A stretch of DNA of 63,269 bases, filler included, from Rhabdomonas costata (Eukaryota), in NCBI GenBank assembly GCA_019059605.1. It is 52 parts of 52 records of this genome, joined end to end, with 100 filler letters (N's around TTAATTAATTAA, not from the genome) between each part and the next. Parts side by side here need not be neighbours in the genome. Positions count along the whole stretch, not along the records: positions 7,316 to 8,434 come from JAHMHO010027648.1; 51 more parts are not named here. One strand, 5' to 3'. The first letter of the stretch is position 1, and every line of letters starts with the position of its first letter. Shown here in pieces: positions 5,495-63,269 of the stretch. Below the pieces are notes generated by a model. That model worked only from the letters and a program-made list of their open reading frames with translations. It ran no database searches and had not been told where the DNA came from. A program made the position numbers and the translations under genes.

Positions 5495-7651
5495 GTATGC
5501 CCATGGCTAAATTAAGGAAAGCAAGGTTGTAGCGAGTAAGTGCGGCACAAAGCTTAACCCAATCATGGCCGTTGAGGCTCGCTCAGCTTGTTTTGTTCTC
5601 ACACTCAGACTATTTTGAAAGGAACCCCTTTCTTAAAAAGAAAAAGTCGCTGGTTTTGAGCTTTGTGTGGTAAGATTGAGGGGTGGTAAGATAGCGTTCG
5701 CTATTCATGAACAGTGAAAACTATTCAACCATGCGCATAAAAGTGTTTTCTATCACCTTTCTCTTCTAACATCTCACAGAACCCTTTCGTAGGCGAAACA
5801 CTGCTCAAATGAGAGCAGCTTTACACACAGGTGCATGAGAGTCGCCGACGAAGGAAGAGGTGAGAATTGGAGAATGGAAAGTAGTGGAATTGGAGTGGAA
5901 AGTGAGATGAGAAAGTGAGGAGGAAACGGAACAAATGCGCAGCGGCGGAGAACGGCGAAACACACAAAGAGCATGACATTAGGTGGCACAAAAACANNNN
6001 NNNNNNNNNNNNNNNNNNNNNNNNNNNNNNNNNNNNNNNNTTAATTAATTAANNNNNNNNNNNNNNNNNNNNNNNNNNNNNNNNNNNNNNNNNNNNGTTG
6101 TTGGGGAAGGGGAAAGGGTGAAAAAGCATACTGCTCGTTTGAGTGTGCTTCTCATGTGCAGCGAACTCGAGTCCACACTCGGAGAACACACATCGTTGTT
6201 GAATCTGAATTTTCCCCTTGCTGGGGACAACAAAAAACACAAACGCTTCACCGACCACTGTCTAGGCTTTAGAATTACAGCTCTGACAAAGACCGTGCAC
6301 GACTCGCAAGTTTGCATATGCGCGCCCTCGATTCTTGTGACTCATCCCCACATGTCCCTCTTCACCGTCAACTATAACATTCTTCATAGGTGAATCTTTG
6401 GCTCGCTTGCAGGCATCAGGAGCTTGACAACTTCATCGTCGTCCAGTACTGTGTTTCTGGTGCCATCCAGCAAACATCACAACATCACGTATGCACATCC
6501 TGTGGAATCACTGCTAAGAGCAGGGCCTAATAGTCGCGACCGTCCTGCGGACCTCCTTCTCACCAGTTGGGGATAGTGACTTACCTTTCTATTTCAAGGC
6601 GCATCGACAAGTCCACACTGCCTCATAGCGTCTTCCACCCTTCAACCCACAGAACAGAGACGCAGCTTCTTTCCTGCGCTGACCAAGCCCCCTTGCTGAA
6701 AGTCCGTGACCAACAGAAAACTTGGGAAGAGGCCGTTTTGGGTTTAACAGAAACAAAGCAATGGGTGCATCCATATGTGCTCAGCAAGTCAGGCGCAAAA
6801 ATGGGAAAGCAGGAGTGCTGTCCATAGAAGGTTCCAGGCAAACCGGGTCAGGGCACTCGCACGCACCCACAGGCATATACGCAAGGTAGCCTGTGCACGA
6901 AGAAGGAAGGAGCAGCACGGCACAAATCTTTTAAAAAGTAAAAAGGACAAAAAAAAAAGGTAAAAAGGACAAACTGCACTGAAGCTGCACGTTCGCGCCC
7001 GCAGAAGAAAGGGAGAGGGGAAGAGACATCACGGCATACAGGAGAGAGAGGCAACTGCGGAGATCAAAAGGGCACTCAGAAGAGAGGCACACAGGCACAC
7101 CGGAGCTACAGCTCGCCGTGTATAACTCGTCATGAGCTGGCGCTGTGCACCACGTCTTCCCTCTTCCCCCCGTCAGTGCCCTCTCTCCCAGCGATGCCAC
7201 GAACTACACCAAAACNNNNNNNNNNNNNNNNNNNNNNNNNNNNNNNNNNNNNNNNNNNNTTAATTAATTAANNNNNNNNNNNNNNNNNNNNNNNNNNNNN
7301 NNNNNNNNNNNNNNNGGTGTGGGGGGGGCGCCAAAAAATGTTGTTGTTCAAAAAGTCATTGTTCTGAGCACGGGGGTTAGGTTTACCTATACTCACTAGA
7401 TAATTATTTACAGCGAAAGGGGTTTGGTTAATTGTTCTGGATGCCGATTTTTTAGTATAATAACTTTCGACTGTTTAACGGTGTAAACATTAAACGCTTC
7501 GCCCCAATACAACAGCCCCTCGTCGGGCGCCCATGGCGTAGAGGAATTTCCCACCGCCAGCACGCGCTACTGTGTGATCTGCTGTTGACCCGCTGAATTT
7601 ATTTTGCTGCCTTGGAATGAGGCCAACACAGATGCGCAAACGATCGGATAC

Positions 7652-7762
7652 CAGCGCAGCAGACGGCTCGGGTGCACGGCCCCGCGGTGCACTCGGTGTC
7701 ATCACTTGTGGGTGTGAATCCCGCAGGGCAGTCATACCCACTGCGGCGACAGGTGGGGTACA
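7652..7762 (-). CDS. Cys-rich repeat module exon (111 nt, phase 1-1)
   Basis: cag|..YPTCRRSGYDCPAGFTPTSDDTECTAGPCTRAVCCA-G|gtatc. Same Cys spacing as the exons at 42351 and 50170. Confidence 0.75.
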
Positions 7763-9560
7763 CTGCGCGACAAAGAGCCATGGGAAGGGACAGCTCGCCA
7801 ACTCCAACGAAAAGCAAACAAAAAGAGGTGAGGGTTTTGCAGCCATCCATACTCCCCACACAAACACACACATTATGCATGCATGCATCCATGCACAAAT
7901 CAGCTCAGCTCATTGGGGCAGCGCACTGGGGGCACTACTGCTGTGCCGACTACAATCAAATCTTCCCTCTTCATCACGGGTCAAAGGTCAAAAAGGTCCC
8001 ATATTTTATACCCACCTTTGTACCCCAAAATGGACCCCCTCGAGGGCACGCACCGGAAGGGGCCCAAGCCGTGCGGCCCGTTCGGGAGGAGCAGGCAAAA
8101 AGGTGTGCAATCATAGAATGTATCCACCCCACAATACCATAACAAACGTGTGCAAAAACACAAAAAAAAAAAAAGGACTCGCAAGAACGCGCAAACCCAA
8201 GGGCAAAATCCAGAAATACAGTTCGGGGAACTGCTGCGCTTAGGCTTCGGTACCAAGGATGTGTTTGCATTGAAGAGGAGGGAGGTCCGGACAGTTGACG
8301 GAAGATTCGTTTTTTATACTTTATGCTCACCTCACTGCCCAGCAGATGCATTGAGCTATCCCCCCGCATTCCTGGTTCACATCTTGCATCTTGCGGAATG
8401 CAGCCACATCAAGGTCATCCAACTCCAAAACCACNNNNNNNNNNNNNNNNNNNNNNNNNNNNNNNNNNNNNNNNNNNNTTAATTAATTAANNNNNNNNNN
8501 NNNNNNNNNNNNNNNNNNNNNNNNNNNNNNNNNNAGTAGCATGTAAGGATGTCTTACGTGTTCCGAGCAAAGTTTCATCCAAACATGAAGATGCACAAAA
8601 ACCACGTAAGACATCCTTACATGCTACTACGGAATGCTCCACTACGTGACCGTATGCCTTCGTGATTTCCACCATAAGGCTCATCCATGCACTCATGAAC
8701 CCCGAACTCAGAGCCCCGAAACGCGAACAATTCTACGCACCGACTGTGGGACCCCTCAATACCCACATGTCATGACGTAGGGTGATGGGATAATGCTGTT
8801 ACCTGGGGGGCCCACATACATGCGGTGCCCTCTACTCCGGGTGGTAGCCGACGCACCCACACTCCATCTCAAAATCGCCCGACATACCACACACTTACAT
8901 CCTACTACAGCATGCCCCTGCGGATCACGCATACGTGTCCTTCCAACCACCACCTCTAACGAAACCACATACCCCTATACATTCGAGGTACCGAGAATGC
9001 AGACATCTCTTCTCTTCATACACTAAAACGTGTGAGTGAACGGACCGCGTAGCGGGAAGTTAACGAACCATCATTCATAGTGAGTGATGGAGCGCAGAGA
9101 CCTCACGACAAGCAAACACAAAAAGGGCGCCACTAACGCATGTGAGTGGGAACTTATACAGTGAATGCCACATACATCCTTAGGGCTGGGAGTGGCATGA
9201 ACTACGGAACCTTATGGAGTATGCGTAGCATACGAACAGCAAAACATTGGGGGCCCCAGTCCTGTAATGGTATTTTAAGACCATCTTACATGCATCTCCC
9301 ATCATTTTTACATATTTTTTGGTTTTTATAATTTTCTTAATTTTTTTGGTTTTTAGGATTTTTTACCCTTATGTACTTCATAGTGCATAACCATATGTGG
9401 TGATATGAACCATTGCATTAAAGGCTCTTGAAAATGCAAAACGTTGTGGAATTTTTAGCGTTTTTTGACGTTTTAATAGCACCGATAAAAACTTTACATA
9501 TGTTTAAAAGGCTTAACTGGACTATTGGACCCACCGTCTTGGTAAAAGTATTTTGTTGCA

Positions 9561-11216: not shown

Positions 11217-12547
11217 GTGTGCATTTTGAATTAGTTTTCGTTTCGGGTGGTTATTGGGTTTCCACGAAACGGGTGGTTTCTCAGATTCTTGCATGCTAGC
11301 TGGGACGACGTTTTTAATGGCTGATCGGCCAGTGGGTTGACCATACTTGCCTGTAGGGTGCAGCCGTTCCCTGTGCCGTCAGCCCCAGTCTTTGCGAGCA
11401 ATTTCCCAATTTGCGACTGGAACTCCGAGCTAAATAAAAAGGGACCTCATCTATCTGCTTTTAGGTTTTATGATATGCCCGGAAGCTCATTCCGAGGATA
11501 CTCAAGGTCGTGCACCTCCCTCCTCTTTCTGTGGCTGTCACTGTATCAGGTCATTTTTTTCATTTTCCGTTTTTCAACTGAGGACCGGTCTCAAAGCCTG
11601 TACTCTGGTGTTTGTCTCGCAACTTTGCAACTGAACTTACAACGAATCCATGGCTCCAGATTCATAATGCATCCACCATCCACACATCCACACACATCCA
11701 CCATCCATCTCTAAAAGGAGCGTCCAAGCCATTCTGCCCAGTCCTCGCCTCCTTTATTTGCCTCGCGTCCAAAAAGAAAATTCGCCGACTTTAGCGATTT
11801 CAGTTGATTGCGGCACTCGCTCTTTATGGCACCTTTATGTTACCGTCATTTGGGAGCTGCTTGTTTGTCCCTTGCAACCTGCCTTGAAAACAAGTAAAGG
11901 GTGGGAGGTGCCGTGAAGTCCACAATCCCCTAAAATCCGAAAATGTTCCTGAATGAATTGCCACAAATGCACTTGAACAACACCAACAGAAACAATAGCA
12001 GTCACGGCACATTTCCCTTCGAAAGAGTGAAAGGTAACGCTTACAGTACGTAAACAAACAAACCTATCAAAGAGTGTAACATCACACCCACNNNNNNNNN
12101 NNNNNNNNNNNNNNNNNNNNNNNNNNNNNNNNNNNTTAATTAATTAANNNNNNNNNNNNNNNNNNNNNNNNNNNNNNNNNNNNNNNNNNNNGGTGTTTGG
12201 GACGGACAGCTGAATCGGCTGTTGTGCGATGAGAGGAAACAAAGACAAAACTCAAGATGCGCGGAGGAAACGAAAAGCTGTGCCTGATAAAGACTAGTAG
12301 TGCTACTCTCCCGCGAAGGGTCCAACTGCTGGGAATGGAGTGCCAGCTTTCCAGACAAAAGGACAGGACCCCTTGTTTTTTCTTGGGCTCATACATGAAC
12401 AAGACAGAGAAGGCTAAGCTCAGGCATCTCCATGCGGAGTTGTATCAGAGACCCGCAAGAATGAAAGCGGATAGAGAAAGAGCGGATCAAGAAAAGGACG
12501 TGTGACTGTGCGTGTGTGCGAGTGTGTGGGTAGAAAAACAAACACAC

Positions 12548-13262
12548 CTCCTCTTCGTAAGCGGGCATGCCCTTCTTGACGTCGGTGACGATGGTGAGGG
12601 GGTAAAAAGCAGACCCCTTGGGGCCCTCGGGGATGGTGCCACCCAGGGTCACCTTGGCACCCATCTCCACGCTCTTTATGACCTGCTGGTGCACCTCCGC
12701 CCGGGAAGCCACACTCACCATGGGCCCTAAAAAATCCGCAAAGGCAGAGCGACAGCGCGTCCGTCTGCTTCTCACTCTTTCTGGATAAGTTGGAAGTGTT
12801 GGCATATGAGGAGCTGATGTCCCATTATGATCAGCGCTTGGGAGCTACACATGCGCGCGCCCGTATGGGCCCTCTGAAAACATGTTTCAAACGAACGAGG
12901 AATGGAGAAAAAGCAAAACTACCGAAAGCGGAAATGGACAGTGGGCTGCGTACCGTTTCACATAAACACACACACACCATGAGAGCGAGCGAGCGGGCAG
13001 GCGAAAGAGAAAAATGCGGCCGACACACACCCATCTGGGTCTCTGGGTTCAAGGGGTCGCCCACCTTGACCGCGGCCATCTTCGCCGTGAACAGTGCGAG
13101 AAACTGGTCGTACACAGCCTCCGTGACGACGAACCTCTTGGCTCCGATGCAGCTCTGACCGCAGTTCAGGGCGCGACCTGCGGTGCACATCTGCGCCGCG
13201 TTGTTCAGCTCGGCGTCCTCGAGGATGAGGTAGGGATCGCTGCCGCCCAGCTCCAGCACGGA
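12548..13262 (-). CDS. NAD(P)-dependent aldehyde dehydrogenase, succinate-semialdehyde dehydrogenase (Sad/GabD1)-like, partial; exons 13031-13262 and 12548-12726
   Basis: SVLELGGSDPYL...NCGQSCIGAKR (catalytic E and C)...TQMG-PMVS...MPAYEEE. GT-AG intron keeps frame. Confidence 0.92.
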
Positions 13263-15905: not shown

Positions 15906-16573
15906 CTAATGGGAGGGATCCTCTCTGGTGCCCATCTCCGGTGCAGCTCCACCAGCCGCGCCTGCATGTCTAGAGAGGCCCCCACTGCGGCCCGCTCGTG
16001 GGCCCTCAGCCGCTGCGGAGCGTTCCACAGCGCCATGATGCAGTCTCCGATAAACTGGGAAAATGAAGCAGAGCCAGAAAAACTGCCGAAGAATTGAGGG
16101 GGAACCCTCTGCCTTCAAGTGAGCAGACAACAGATGAGCACACAGATGATGTAACACCTGTGCGTGCATGCGCGTTGATCGGCTGGCGTCATGGTCATAA
16201 AGCACCGAGACGCAAAAACTTGCAGGACGCAACCATAGCGTGAAAAACCTAGGTCCTGTGCGTGTATGAGACAGTTTAGTGAGCTTCCGAAAACGGTTCT
16301 GGGGGAGGGGGGATGTACCCATACACACATGCCTTGTCCAGAGTCCCGTTGGAGTCCACAATGACCTCGCACATTGCCTGCAGATAGTCCTGAGTCAGTT
16401 TCATCAATTGGTCGGGTTGGATCCGCTCGCACAGGCTGCTGAACCCCGCGATGTCCGCAAACAGCACGGTCACCACGTGGCGGCTCATCACGTTGGTGCA
16501 ACTTCCCGTTTCGCCGCTCAGCATCGTCCGCACCACCTCCCTGGGCACGTACTTCACAAACGCCTTCAGCCCC
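15906..16573 (-). CDS. Class III adenylate cyclase (receptor-type) catalytic domain, partial; exons 16333-16573 and 15906-16054
   Basis: KYVPREVV...VTVLFADIAGFSSLCE...GTLDK-FIGDCIMALWNAP, joined by GC-AG intron 16055-16332. Confidence 0.93.
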
Positions 16574-34644: not shown

Positions 34645-36596
34645 CTGCGCGGAGGGAGGCACTCGAACCCACTCATACATCAAGCATCAAGAAGCGTCAG
34701 TTGGTACAAAAAGACAGCCAACCACAAGCTTAAAGATACATCCTGCTGTGGAAGTGCTATATAATAATAGGTGAGACAAAAAGACAGATGGGCACAGGAA
34801 GTTTTTAGATTTCAAAGGGCTAAGCACTACACACATGTACCATGACCACGTGCTTTCTTTGATTTGCAGGAATAAGAGCAGCCCCTCTAACAAAGCAACT
34901 TTCAACTGCGAACCTCGACTTCCCACATTTTAGCAGAATCCTGCAGATAGTCAGGCGAATCCTTTTCAGTGCAAATATTGACTCTATCGGACCCAGGACA
35001 CGGAGGTACAGTCAAAGAATGGACTCCACATGGCTACAAGGGAAGACACCCTGATTTTGCAAGTTTCCGAACAGATCTTCGAACACCTAAAATTAATACA
35101 AAAGCGGTCCGATGCATTTTTCTTTGGGTTAAACGGCTCAACGTTGTCAAAACGGTTTCACGCAACGGCGATGAGCAGTCCACAGGAGTTGTCACACAAT
35201 AGGGACAGAGTTATTTAAGTGGTGAGGGCCAGCGCCGCTGGCCGCCACCACNNNNNNNNNNNNNNNNNNNNNNNNNNNNNNNNNNNNNNNNNNNNTTAAT
35301 TAATTAANNNNNNNNNNNNNNNNNNNNNNNNNNNNNNNNNNNNNNNNNNNNGGTTGGTTGGCATACACACTTTCAACACAGATTCACAAAACGCTTCTAT
35401 CATCTTCATCAACACCCAGCTGCCCGCCACCCAAACAGCATATCCTGGGAAGATGTCTCACCGGACTCTGGCGACCAACTACACATCCACGAAGCCATCC
35501 GTCCGCTTTCCGGGATGGGCCTTAACAAACCAAGAAACGCTGGCTTGAGCTGGGTCGTTTACCAATAATTCCCAGCACAGAACCCTCCAATGGAGCCCCG
35601 CTTTCCCACAGGGGCCCATGCATGCGCTCATCGCATCTAAACAGCTACCACACACACACAGCATCTCTGCACCGGTTCGGCAGATTCCCATATGTGAAAA
35701 CTGGAGCCACACTTGGGGAAAGAAGACAGGAATGCAGGTCAAGCCAGCAAGTGGTGGAAGGACGTCTCAGAGGTAAAGTCACGGAGAGCTATGCAAGCCT
35801 TTTCCGCGCAGAAAGCACAACACAACAAAATGGGGATATCTTGAGAGGAGAGTTCTATGTGAATAAAGGAGGTGAACTCCGGGCGGAGCAGCTAACTGAT
35901 CTCATGCACTGCCCCAGTGCCTGATGTTTCGACCCCGACAGAAGGAGAGAGAGAGAGCGAGAGAGCGAGAGAGCGCAAAACAAACAAATCTGGCCTCGGA
36001 GGGGGCCAAAGTAAAAAACAAAAAGTGTCCAACGGGACCGCAACTATTACAACCAGAGTCACATGGGTCTCCAAACTACATGAGGGAAGGCAAACAGCCC
36101 AACCCAATCCCGGCCGACTCGGCGGCAGGCTGTTTCCGGAGCCCACTCTGGGGAGTAGCCAAGTATTCGTGAAGAAAGCCACGTAAACACGGGCCTTTCG
36201 TAGGCACGAGGGGAGAACATGTCCTCCCGACACCACAATACACAAGCAGACGAGCTCAAGAGGACCAGAAGGATAGTCCCATGAAAAGCACGCAAAGAGG
36301 GGGTGCGCCCATAACTCTGGGGCACGCCGACACACAAGGCATGTGCGGGCATGCAGTCAAGCGGGCTTGCAGTGCAAGTGGATTCCTGGAGGCAGCGAGC
36401 GGGATCGGGCTGGGGGTGAGAAGCCCGACAGAGAAGGAACGCACGAACAACTTCCAAAAACTGCTCGAAANNNNNNNNNNNNNNNNNNNNNNNNNNNNNN
36501 NNNNNNNNNNNNNNTTAATTAATTAANNNNNNNNNNNNNNNNNNNNNNNNNNNNNNNNNNNNNNNNNNNNCTGCACTGGCTCGAGTTGGTGCGCAG

Positions 36597-37543
36597 ATGT
36601 ACGCGAAGATCTTCCACCCGTACACCGTGAAGCAGTGGGGAAAGCCCCCGCGGCAGCTCGCGGCGGAGGTGCTGGACCGAATCCCCGTGCGCTCGGACTG
36701 GAATGACCGGTACTTCCCCGGGGATGAATTCCAGGCGCTACCCTCCCGGGGCTACACCGCGATGTTCGCAGCGATGCTGGGGCACCCCAAAATCACCGTG
36801 GTGCTGGGCACGGACTACTTCGAGGTGCGGCGTTTTTGTCGGTGGTCCACTCGTGAAATCGCTGACCGCCGGCTGAGTCTCTTCGTGCATATTCACTTTT
36901 GATAATCCCAAGACGTCTGTTGTCCACCGAAATATTTGCCTGCCTCACTCCTTCATCTGCCTCGCGAGGTGCAGCTGCGCCGTGACTTTTTATTCATCTT
37001 GCCGCGTAAACATATTTATTGCTCGTTGGACTATGCCGAGTATTTCTGGCGATGGTGGTGGTTCCCTTTTCAACTAATAATCCAACAGGAAAGCAAATTA
37101 GCGGGCTAATCAAACTCCGACTCACCAGAAGTCCAGAAAAGATGAGTTTGTTTTTGTGAAATTAGGCGCGCTATCAGTGGAATCATGAATCCTGTCCTGT
37201 GTGGTCATGTAGTCTCCTGCATCTTCTTCCGAGGGTTGGGTGGGTATCTTAAGTGCCCATACTCAGGATTTCTGGTCGTGTGACCTCTTCTAGGATAGTC
37301 TTGCCACTCCATGTCTCCCACCCCACCAAGACCACCTGCACTTTCATATCTGTTTCATGTGCCCTTGCCGCCCTCGGTGCTGGGCAGGTCAAGAAGGCGC
37401 TTCAGGGGAGGTTCCAGAGGCTCTTCTTTACCGGCCCGATCGACGAGTACTTCAGCAGCCAGGGCTGGCCCAAACTGGAGTACCGCAGCATCATCTTCCA
37501 GAGGGAATACGCCAAACCCCGAACCAGGGCAGGGTACTACCAG
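36597..37543 (+). CDS. glf: UDP-galactopyranose mutase, prokaryotic type, partial; exons 36597-36824 and 37388-37543
   Basis: YTVKQWG...RIPVR...DRYF..DEFQALP..GYT...TDYF-...FTGPIDEYF....KLEYRS. GT-AG intron 36825-37387 in phase 0. Confidence 0.92.
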
Positions 37544-42350: not shown

Positions 42351-42458
42351 CGATACAGCAGTCCTTCACGTCACACGGAACAGAAGAGCACACGATGCTG
42401 CCGTTCTTGGCGATGTACCCCGTGGGGCAGCTGTAGGTTCCACAGGTGAGGTTCGCAG
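42351..42458 (-). CDS. Cys-rich repeat module exon (108 nt, phase 1-1)
   Basis: cag|.ANLTCGTYSCPTGYIAKNGSIVCSSVPCDVKDCCI-G|gtaatt. Confidence 0.8.
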
Positions 42459-47889: not shown

Positions 47890-48330
47890 CTAGGCTGGAG
47901 GTCCCTCTCGGACCCTTTCCTTGCAAAGAAGGTACCAAAGTACGGGCGCGGGTGCTCCAGGAGTGGCAGAGCCCCTCGCTATCTCCGCGTCAATTTCGCT
48001 CCCTTGTTGAGCTTGTGCCTCGGCGGGCCCCACAGAATCTACACTCAAGGTGCGGCCCAAGGGGTCCCGCTCGCAGTCAGGGCAGCACAGCAGCCGGAAG
48101 CCAGTGGCCGCAATAACGGTGGGCTTCGTGAAGCCAATGTTGTCAAAAGTGAGGGCCTCGCGGACACCCCACCACTGCTCGGAGGTCAGCCCGCCTCCCG
48201 CGGAGTCCAGGGGAAGAAAGAGGGACTGCTGAAGCAAAGTGGCCTTGCGGGCGCGAAGAAGCTTGCAACCGCAAGTAGGGCAGAGAAGCGCGCAGGGATT
48301 CGTCTGCGGGGCGGCCTCAGCCGAGGCCAT
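47890..48330 (-). CDS. RABIF: Mss4/RABIF Rab guanine-nucleotide exchange factor/chaperone, complete and intronless (146 aa)
   Basis: N..LLCPTCGCKLL...WW.V.....FDNIGFTK...LCCPDCERDPLG...YLLCKERV, with ATG at 48330 and TAG at 47890. Confidence 0.9.
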   Translation of the reverse strand: MASAEAAPQTNPCALLCPTCGCKLLRARKATLLQQSLFLPLDSAGGGLTSEQWWGVREALTFDNIGFTKPTVIAATGFRLLCCPDCERDPLGRTLSVDSVGPAEAQAQQGSEIDAEIARGSATPGAPAPVLWYLLCKERVREGPPA

Positions 48331-48769
48331 AATAATGCTTGAGAGAAAGATTTCAGAGTACAACACAAAATGAGCAAATGAAAGCTGACACTGCACTGAC
48401 ATCGAGAACGCACAGCAGAAAACATTTCCGAGTGACAAAAAAAACACTGGAGCAAAACCTTGTCTGTGCATGGCTTTTCGAATTTTGCACATGCACGAGC
48501 GAAGTGTCAAACCCTCTTTTACTGACCACAGAAAACGTCAGGATTAGCGGATTAGTGCTGTCCGTGCATCATTCGTTGCTAATTGAAAAACCAGGGGCCG
48601 CTGCCGAAAAAAACAGGAATATCCAACTTTCACCTGTCCTCATCTGACACAATACCCACCANNNNNNNNNNNNNNNNNNNNNNNNNNNNNNNNNNNNNNN
48701 NNNNNTTAATTAATTAANNNNNNNNNNNNNNNNNNNNNNNNNNNNNNNNNNNNNNNNNNNNTGTGTGGT

Positions 48770-50169: not shown

Positions 50170-50274
50170 CGAGGCAGCAGTCTGCGGTGGTGCACGTTAG
50201 CGAGGGGCAAACCGCACCCGCGGGCTTCGGGACGTACCCAGTGGGGCAGGCGTACGCCGAGCATGTCGGAAGGG
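50170..50274 (-). CDS. Cys-rich repeat module exon (105 nt, phase 1-1)
   Basis: cag|.LPTCSAYACPTGYVPKPAGAVCPSLTCTTADCCL-G|gtacgc. Confidence 0.8.
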
Positions 50275-53771: not shown

Positions 53772-54743
53772 GGAGGAATGCGTGGTGACGACCTGGGATG
53801 TGTTCTATGAGAAGTTTGGGTTCATGCTGATCTTTTGGAACCTGGCGGGCGTGCCGTTTGTGTACTGCCACTCCAGCTACTATCTGCTCCGGGCGGGCCC
53901 CATCACGCACTCCCTGCCCTACACGGTGTGATTTCTGGAGCGGGAGGGCTTTGAAGTCCGGCGTTGGTTCCGTTTTTTCCATCGCTGTCAGCTATCAGCT
54001 CACATTCGCAAGCTGAGCCTTCCTGTATATCTATCTGCTGTACCCCACACACATTACATATATGGGACTGGGATGAAGCGCGCACTGTGTCATGTACATA
54101 TGTTCTCACTCGTGCTGCAGGTGTTTTGGTTCACGCTTCTTCTGAGCGCGTACTATGTGTGGGATACAGCCAACAGCCAGAAGAACCGCTTCCGAATGCA
54201 GGTATCTTGCTTCTCTCCTCAGCACTACTTTCAGAGCGTATTTACAGTTTTTTCACGAAGTTCTGGAAAGTGTTCTTTCACTTTCTGATTCCAAATTTGG
54301 TTTTATCAATCCTTTTGGATTCACCAGCGCAGAACATCGCTGAAGGCTTTGGTTGAGGCGGTACATTCCGTTCCAATGACCGGCAGTCTTTAATTCATAT
54401 GATAATTGGCTTTTTCGCTTCGAGTTCCTTTGACATACGAACGCGGTGGCTTTAATCATCACAACTTTTCCTTTGTTATCTTCTTTGACTTAGGGACAGT
54501 GGTAGGAATATTTATTGTGCTGATATCGTATTGCTGAACATTATCGTATTTCCAGCAGTTTCCTACGCAGCCGAGGTTTTCCTGTAGAAGGATGGACGTT
54601 TTTCCACCATTTGCACCGCGGTGCCCCCTTTTCTCACTTTCACTGTCCCTCACTCGCAGCGACGTGGGACGTACGTGCCGCGGCGAGCCTTTCCCCAGCT
54701 GCCGTGGGGCACCCTCAGCAACCCCTCGTACATCACCACCCCC
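53772..54743 (+). CDS. ERG4: Delta24(24(1))-sterol reductase, partial; exons 53772-53925, 54121-54201 and 54660-54743
   Basis: [28 protein letters not shown]...[33 protein letters not shown] with two in-frame GT-AG introns. Confidence 0.94.
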
Positions 54744-62446: not shown

Positions 62447-63133
62447 ACTGCACTACAAGGTGGACGCCCCGATCTCAATCAATTCGGTGTTCTATGTGGG
62501 TCAGTCCCACACGGAGAAGTTCGGCATTGCCCGCCTGGAGCCCAACGTCAACCTGTACTGCAGGTATGCCGTGTTGGTGTTGGGTGGAAGATCACCAGTC
62601 ACTCCGTAGCCTTTCCTTGACAAACCGGGCCCTGTAGGTGTGGATATTGCTCCAGTGCAGATAGGTTGGTTGTTTTTTGACGTGCTGTTTTCTTTGAGTC
62701 TTTGTTTTCATTAATTAAAAATAATTGTAGTTGCGACGGCTCACAGGAAGGTACTGATCAAGGCGAAGGCAAAGGACGTTCTGCCGGAATGGCTGAGGTG
62801 CCCTCTCGCCCCCCCCCCCTCTCTTCGCAACATGCTGCTCGGCGTGATCAGCGCACACCTTGGCTGTGCATCTTTTCTTTTTGATGCTTTTTATGAGGAC
62901 AAGACTCAGATGACTTCGGTCGTCCGTTTGGGGTTATTCCAAAGAACTGCTCTCCATTCTTCTGTTAGCTTTTGTGCATTATCGGTTTCCTGAGGGGTGG
63001 GGTCGGGGGGAAGGTTTGTCCATGCTGTGGTGGACTCTGAGGACCTCCCGCTGAACATCTCCCGCGAGAACACTCAGGACAGTGCGCAGATCCGCAAGCT
63101 TAATGGAGTGCTTACGGCGCGGCTCATTAAATG
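62447..63133 (+). CDS. TRAP1: Mitochondrial Hsp90 (TRAP1/Hsp75), partial; exons 62447-62563, 62747-62797 and 63014-63133
   Basis: [17 protein letters not shown]...[41 protein letters not shown] with two in-frame GT-AG introns. Confidence 0.92.
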
Positions 63134-63269
63134 GTATGTAGCGAGCCGCGCACAAGGAGCCACATATCCCCAAGCACGCCGCGTTATTTATTGTTTTGTA
63201 TGAGCTCTTGGGTTGCCTGAGTCTCTTTCTTTTGTTTTTCCTTGGGTGAGGTGCTTGCCGCGATCCCTT

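Follow-up and report, generated by a model that had tools for sequence, protein, structure and literature searches.

Module exons in the window

The stretch of DNA analyzed here, referred to as the window, comprises 63,269 nucleotides (nt) from the genome assembly GCA_019059605.1 of the euglenid Rhabdomonas costata (G000 below; 97.2 Mb in 104,289 contigs). The window consists of 52 contigs of approximately 1.1 kb, which are joined every ~1,219 bases by an artificial spacer of N's around a 12-base motif, and contigs that are adjacent in the window are not adjacent in the genome. The subject of the analysis is a short exon at positions 7652–7762, which encodes a module with six cysteines, and the two related exons that are located elsewhere in the window (Table 1). 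The three exons are found on contigs 7, 35 and 42. Their coordinates and lengths had been given correctly in an earlier, sequence-only reading of this DNA, to which we add that all three are encoded on the minus strand.

Each exon is located between an AG and a GT and consists of 2 nt, a series of whole codons and 1 nt, which confirms for all three that the length is a multiple of three and that both ends are in phase 1. The donor is in each case found 4 nt after the codons for the terminal cysteine pair (CC). The cysteine pattern that had been proposed was recovered overall, with the correction that the first spacing is six, four and four residues, rather than four or five, and that the second is eight residues in all three exons. 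The strict motif was matched three times in the window, as compared to no matches in 100 shuffled sequences. A hidden Markov model (HMM) of 89 modules, the three window exons included, recovered the same three exons and no fourth copy in the window. The nearest paralogs of copy 1 are 54–63% identical and have conserved exon boundaries, and copy 2 has a close paralog on contig G000:C39226, with which it has intron sequence in common.

Table 1. Coordinates of the module exons, the splice sites of copy 1 and exons from the background set in the window.
Feature	Position	Strand	Description
Module exon, copy 1	7652–7762	(-)	111 nt, phase 1-1, C-x6-C-x12-C-x4-C-x4-CC; contig 7316–8434 (G000:C27648)
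Module exon, copy 2	42351–42458	(-)	108 nt, phase 1-1, C-x4-C-x12-C-x4-C-x4-CC
Module exon, copy 3	50170–50274	(-)	105 nt, phase 1-1, C-x4-C-x12-C-x4-C-x4-CC; contig G000:C27683
Acceptor AG, copy 1	7763–7764	(-)	CAG, pyrimidine-rich upstream, 11 nt before first cysteine codon
Donor GT, copy 1	7650–7651	(-)	4 nt past the CC codons
Background exon	12545–13262	(-)	aldehyde dehydrogenase
Background exon	15944–16572	(-)	nucleotide cyclase
Background exon	36591–37501	(+)	UDP-galactopyranose mutase
Background exon	48019–48339	(-)	Mss4
Background exon	53782–54186	(+)	ERG4/ERG24
Background exon	62454–63146	(+)	HSP90 family

Splice sites and intron phase

The position of the splice sites was examined in 69 distinct modules obtained from the protein search. 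A GT was located at +4 in 54 of these and an AG at -11 in 54, and most of the other acceptors were located at -5, -8, -14 or -17, which corresponds to the same phase. A second subfamily has the AG at -8 and the GT at +7, that is, the intron has moved by one codon, and a third has the GT at +1, as confirmed by the protein P0054. The suggestion that the exons end two residues after the CC pair therefore holds for one subfamily, and the others end one codon later or earlier with phase 1 retained.

Phase preferences were further analyzed in 159 modules with a splice site scorer that is blind to phase. The best donor was in phase 1 in 142 modules, in phase 0 in five and in phase 2 in three, with no donor called in the remaining nine, and the best acceptor was in phase 1 in 154 modules. 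Intron positions in the other copies are thus not random, in agreement with what the sequence-only reading had anticipated. Using the same scorer, 47 of 66 boundaries were called in 33 other putative exons in the window (examples in Table 1), with 24 in phase 0, 11 in phase 1 and 12 in phase 2, so that phase 1 represents about a quarter of the background boundaries. Metagenome contigs provided another source, with nine distinct modules showing the same exon layout, eight of them with a GT at +4.

For copies that have no donor after the CC pair, non-conventional euglenid introns were considered and excluded; in these copies, the reading frame continues into a PSI domain and up to a phase-1 GT. 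Several module exons, on L016, L040 and L122, have a GC dinucleotide where the phase-1 donor GT is usually located. In a recently expanded family in which the module is followed by PSI (L005–L009, L013, L014, L017, L019 and L023), the acceptors are AAG after runs of A, not CAG. The R. costata genome is described as intron-rich, with mostly GT/AG introns, in the available part of the genome paper (PMC8219788), the main text of which, as available, does not contain the strings "shuffl" and "secret".

Transcript-derived proteins and partner domains

The translations of exons on G000 contigs are identical to segments of proteins labelled as R. costata. Seven such proteins contain the module, and an N-terminal hydrophobic stretch was observed in all seven by a simple hydropathy scan, which suggests that these proteins enter the secretory pathway, in line with the surface proteins of the earlier reading, for which a mucus or adhesion role would be a further possibility. 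The module is combined with Kelch in P0004 and P0036, with Methyltransf_FA in P0033, with a region weakly similar to Methyltransf_FA in P0003 (E 4e-4), and with Peptidase_S8 and a C-terminal membrane segment in P0054. P0015 contains the module and a PSI-like stretch, with no PSI call by Pfam on the whole protein, and P0055 contains modules only. Combination with unrelated domains, as had been proposed, was hence observed for Kelch, Methyltransf_FA, Peptidase_S8 and PSI. On L139 (G000:C17482, ~1270–1370), the genomic copy of module 3 of P0004 is interrupted by a stop codon at a cysteine position, representing a dead allele or paralog. L112 (G000:C29584) contains a stop-free stretch of 846 nt (178–1023) that resembles the S8 peptidase domain of P0054 with 48% identity; this would be an unusually long exon for the genome and is possibly a recently acquired gene.

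Six of the seven proteins were mapped to exons, and every module or signal peptide boundary that could be placed was in phase 1, including the ends of the signal exons of P0004, P0033 and P0055. The C-terminal part of P0054 outside the modules has three introns, in phases 0, 0 and 2. The module is thus present in transcript-derived proteins, which show for other copies that the symmetric phase 1-1 exons are transcribed and spliced as the sequence-only reading had predicted.

The partner domains obey the same phase-1 rule as the module exons, as do the signal exons. For the Kelch propeller, the 5' end was in phase 1 in 12 of 12 cases and the 3' end likewise in 12 of 12, several of the latter being extrapolated from partial alignments, and the internal intron was in phase 0 in 15 of 18 donors and 12 of 13 acceptors. 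The Methyltransf_FA-like domain is encoded by one exon, with phase 1 in five of six acceptors and four of five donors. PSI (PF01437) scored above the Pfam cut-off of 23.1 bits in six of eight exons (21.5 and 22.7 bits in the other two). It is located within the same exon as the module, which makes it the exception to the otherwise general rule of one exon per module, and the exon end was by eye in phase 1 (a G followed by GT) in all eight distinct copies. The order of the domains is not fixed: modules precede Kelch on four contigs and follow it on four, and they precede Methyltransf_FA on one contig and follow it in P0033.

Copy number

A genome search with copy 3 yielded 351 candidates, and among the 150 that were scored all 150 matched. 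The tail motif C-x3-[DE]-CC was found 1,487 times genome-wide, as compared to 317 times for the reversed pattern, and the excess of 1,170 is an upper figure for this motif. A GT followed the tail motif in 526 cases at +4 and in 239 cases at +7, both corresponding to phase 1, versus 66 cases at +3 and 52 at +5. The reversed-pattern control understates the background, and the counts at +3 and +5 were therefore used in its place, which gives ~650 phase-1 module ends. The number of module copies in the assembly is thus roughly 650–1,200, a count by tail motif that misses copy 1, which has no D/E, and in which alleles are possibly counted twice. The module is very abundant, as had been stated, but extrapolation from the window (~5,000 copies) is too high, and three copies in one window represent a lucky draw (P 0.007–0.03). 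Counts of C-x4-C-x4-C (5,177 versus 2,414) were discarded as a measure of abundance, being swamped by microsatellites; it was these counts that revealed the weakness of the reversed-pattern control.

Proposed exon shuffling versus tandem duplication

Based on these results, we consider it likely that the exon at 7652–7762 belongs to a small six-cysteine extracellular module that this euglenid carries in several hundred to about a thousand copies, and that its secreted and surface proteins are put together by class 1-1 exon shuffling. Since the ends of the signal exon, the module, Kelch, the Methyltransf_FA-like domain and PSI share phase 1, each unit could be copied, removed or placed in an intron with the reading frame intact. 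Modules are found as tandem arrays and on both flanks of unrelated domains, and one gene copy appears to have lost a module exon from its DNA. The mechanism may be recombination within introns, with tandem gain and loss being frequent and recent and moves between unrelated genes being older. The six cysteines would form three disulfides, and chains of modules would serve as a stiff, protease-resistant spacer that presents a binding or catalytic head, such as the propeller, the Methyltransf_FA-like domain or the S8 peptidase, either on the cell surface or in material that is secreted.

A different history, which we regard as unlikely, is that the architectures were made otherwise, that introns later entered the linkers at phase-1 proto-splice sites, and that the module exon was multiplied by tandem duplication within its own gene, with no moves between genes. 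Tandem arrays and super-repeats are indeed common, the modules of the recent PSI family cluster together, and the same module is present in intronless genes elsewhere; the lack of a near-identical module in two architectures, described below, is also as expected from such a history. However, four unrelated domain types and the signal exon have phase-1 borders while the internal introns are in phase 0 or 2, modules flank both Kelch and Methyltransf_FA on either side, and the subfamilies with GT at +4 and at +7 are both linked to Kelch. Of 36 labelled modules, 21 have a nearest neighbor with the same type of partner. Among the Kelch-linked modules, this is the case for only seven of 17, and the other 10 have their nearest neighbor in a gene with another partner or none.

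Several points weigh against shuffling as the explanation. A near-identical module was not found in two architectures (at best 62% of the non-cysteine positions), which means that a recent transfer from gene to gene was not observed; as the identity across types never exceeds this value, such moves look old. Because paralogs inherit introns, the partner-domain counts reflect about four independent types of domain and not dozens of separate events. The set of 159 modules was partly taken from contigs chosen via the GT+4, GT+7 and tail lists; without such selection, the GT was at +4 in 54 of 69 modules. The background set is small and noisy, with a Pfam match in only 14 of its 33 exons, and by the blind scorer only four of seven PSI 3' ends were in phase 1. 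The assembly is fragmented, and whole-gene structures rest on seven transcript-derived proteins, some of which are partial. For the exon at 7652–7762 itself, a word-based protein search found no transcript-derived protein, and no second module exon was seen on its contig.

Identity and range of the module

In an alignment of 89 modules, all six cysteines are conserved without exception. The possibility that the module derives from a known family (EGF-like, Sushi, RECK CC or a protist surface-antigen repeat), from which it has diverged so far that the libraries miss it, and that its layout is already known, was evaluated by sequence and structure searches. Short disulfide domains are hard to detect, and weak cEGF scores were obtained in three of the 89 members at E up to 1 (best E 0.01), all under the cut-off. 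No Pfam family covers the module in the 89 members or in 25 full proteins, and NCBIfam gave a match to the module in none of 14. Matches to PDB sequences span the CPxG part only and are partial, to Sushi and MPEG1 chains.

An AlphaFold2 model of the module (36 residues) had a predicted local distance difference test score (pLDDT) of 81 and little regular structure, with two four-residue helices only. No fold match for this model was found by Foldseek in PDB, VIA wide or BFVD, which is weak evidence for a chain of 36 residues. A model of P0015 from the single sequence was unusable (pLDDT 41.7). In the ESM Atlas, the exon matched only unnamed sub-0.9 clusters and P0015 matched nothing, and word-based protein searches, which are insensitive, gave four matches for the module alignment and retrieved only P0015 itself for P0015. 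Literature searches, with most subscription journals outside their range, found no description of the module, nor of class 1-1 shuffling in protists.

Individual candidates were also rejected. The EGF-like/cEGF domain (PF12662) scored 15.7 bits against a cut-off of 26.6, over residues 11–25 only. In the RECK CC repeat, the CC pair is at the start and the domain is helical; by its exon borders, the module has its CC pair at the C-terminal end, and with only the two short helices and no fold match this identity is not supported. Homology to described animal modules such as EGF, Sushi and LDLa was not borne out by the Pfam, PDB and fold searches. Thus, searches of Pfam, NCBIfam and PDB sequences and by fold yielded no well-described domain that passed the threshold, none of these libraries has a name for the module, and it is probably undescribed; that it belongs to a known family with a known layout appears improbable.

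A profile search with the module gave 50 representatives, and 10 of the 30 proteins that were looked up carry an organism name, namely R. costata (five), Rhynchopus humris (two), Cladosiphon okamuranus, Sphacelaria rigidula and Pirum gemmata. The independent expansion in a protist that had been proposed therefore holds in that the carrier is a euglenid with a very abundant module, but the module did not arise locally: it also occurs in brown algae, a diplonemid and an ichthyosporean and in metagenome genes that have no introns. The expansion and the exon layout may be local.

Among pattern matches in metagenomes, eight of 30 contained no module according to the HMM and were set aside. Long intronless open reading frames (ORFs) with many modules were observed on L084, L086, L089, L092, L099 and L102, with L086 alternating modules with spondin-type TSP1 repeats. 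Intronless module genes were also found on the metagenome contigs L085, L088, L090, L091, L103 and L106, of which L085, L088 and L090 are gene-dense and have DUF285 or tyrosinase-like partners. The gene-dense intronless module contigs have a GC content of 33–44% and may originate from giant viruses. In the viral collection, P0053 had no match, and the one pattern match was to an unrelated cysteine-rich ORF of 785 amino acids on the viral contig L081 (2–2356, minus strand), which has many CC motifs, lies beside a phage-like gene and does not contain the module.

Exon loss and alternative splicing

The protein P0055 joins module A to module C, whereas the genomic paralogs on C33, C7860 and C17003 have module B after A. 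In a comparison of contig C68737 (L074, 1–560) with C33 (L051, 2780–3560), the A–B intron matched at 96.5%. The acceptor of exon B is kept in C68737, most of B and its donor are gone, and exon C differs by one residue from that of P0055. Loss at the DNA level explains the A–C join; the contig may be misassembled, but the join is seen independently in P0055. The ratio of non-synonymous to synonymous substitution rates (dN/dS) was 0.28 over 34 non-overlapping module pairs and 0.38 outside the cysteine codons, and the module is under purifying selection overall. The use of modules as splicing cassettes, by which single genes would yield many proteins through skipping or choosing modules and so a variable surface coat or recognition repertoire, is permitted by the frame-neutral exons but is very improbable, as the sole apparent skip, in P0055, matches a genomic deletion, P0003, P0004 and P0054 join neighboring exons in order (P0003 and P0054 neither showing nor excluding cassette use), and the dN/dS outside the cysteines indicates no overall diversifying selection; the alternative splicing that the sequence-only reading had raised thus found no support in the transcript-derived proteins, although low-level skipping may occur.

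Comparison with known systems

In animals, symmetric 1-1 exons are the units of exon shuffling for disulfide-bonded extracellular modules, and with animals alone as a case the 1-1 bias cannot be tested by comparison. We lean towards a broader view of the euglenid system, in which osmotrophic euglenids would have evolved class 1-1 exon shuffling for their secreted proteome independently of animals. It would have started from a phase-1 intron downstream of the signal peptide and have centered on an undescribed, pan-protist six-cysteine domain that was also passed to giant viruses, and varied surface proteins would still arise from it as module exons are gained and lost.

EGF domains likewise have six cysteines, and the module resembles the EGF-like/cEGF (PF12662) and Sushi domains in its length of ~35 residues and in its CPxG[YF] turn. 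It differs from both in the terminal CC pair and the C-x4-C-x4-CC spacing, with sub-cut-off scores on the CPxG part only. Proteins of the Attractin/MEGF8 type combine an extracellular Kelch propeller, PSI domains and small disulfide modules, which is a similar toolkit to that observed here, and P0004 and P0036 gave weak scores, under the cut-off, for the Pfam family Beta-prop_ATRN-LZTR1. In contrast to these proteins, no EGF, CUB or C-type lectin domains were found in the R. costata proteins, in which Kelch and PSI were not observed together in one protein, and no evidence of orthology was found.

The nearest non-animal precedent that we found is provided by the LRR (leucine-rich repeat) and TPR (tetratricopeptide repeat) arrays of the Ectocarpus ROCO LRR and NB-ARC-TPR genes (Zambounis et al., PMC3341825). 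According to the available part of that paper, the repeats are shuffled within the array and are under diversifying selection, and the word "cysteine" is absent from the main text as available. As far as that part describes them, the Ectocarpus genes are similar in being non-animal, in having one repeat per exon and in showing gain, loss and rearrangement of exons. They differ from the R. costata genes, in which a cysteine module is joined to unrelated extracellular domains and is under purifying selection overall.

A further close comparison is with the class 1-1 proteins of animals, as treated in the available part of Patthy 2021 (PMC8001218). There, exon shuffling is diagnosed from a correlation of domains with introns and from a non-random intron phase, and exon-shuffled proteins are said to be restricted to animals. 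In R. costata, introns coincide with domain boundaries for the modules, the Methyltransf_FA-like domain, the Kelch borders and the transcript junctions, the module+PSI exon being the exception. The use of phase 1 is non-random (142 of 159 donors and 154 of 159 acceptors versus 11 of 47 background boundaries, with phase 0 inside Kelch), and the same module occurs with unrelated domains and in different orders. The R. costata module genes are thus probably a non-animal class 1-1 shuffling system, in which these features were observed but a recent transfer was not, and for which the hydrophobic N-termini suggest an extracellular or membrane location.

As in the animal proteins described in that part of PMC8001218, introns are located at domain borders and in phase 1, the modules are symmetric, and the signal exon ends in phase 1; the animal proteins are secreted or membrane-bound, and the euglenid proteins may be so as well, judging from the hydropathy scan. 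Unlike these, they are encoded by a unicellular euglenid, the commonest module has no library name, and only about five domain types have been observed so far. An unnamed, putatively extracellular domain, present across several protist lineages, is hereby defined. The same part of PMC8001218 asks why all shuffled domains are of class 1-1, and proposes phase-1 introns near signal peptides as the source of the bias. If the interpretation proposed here is true, the euglenid would be an independent replicate of the animal system that agrees with it in phase and in having a signal exon of phase 1. Class 1-1 shuffling would then no longer be tied to multicellularity, and the explanation by signal peptides would gain support.
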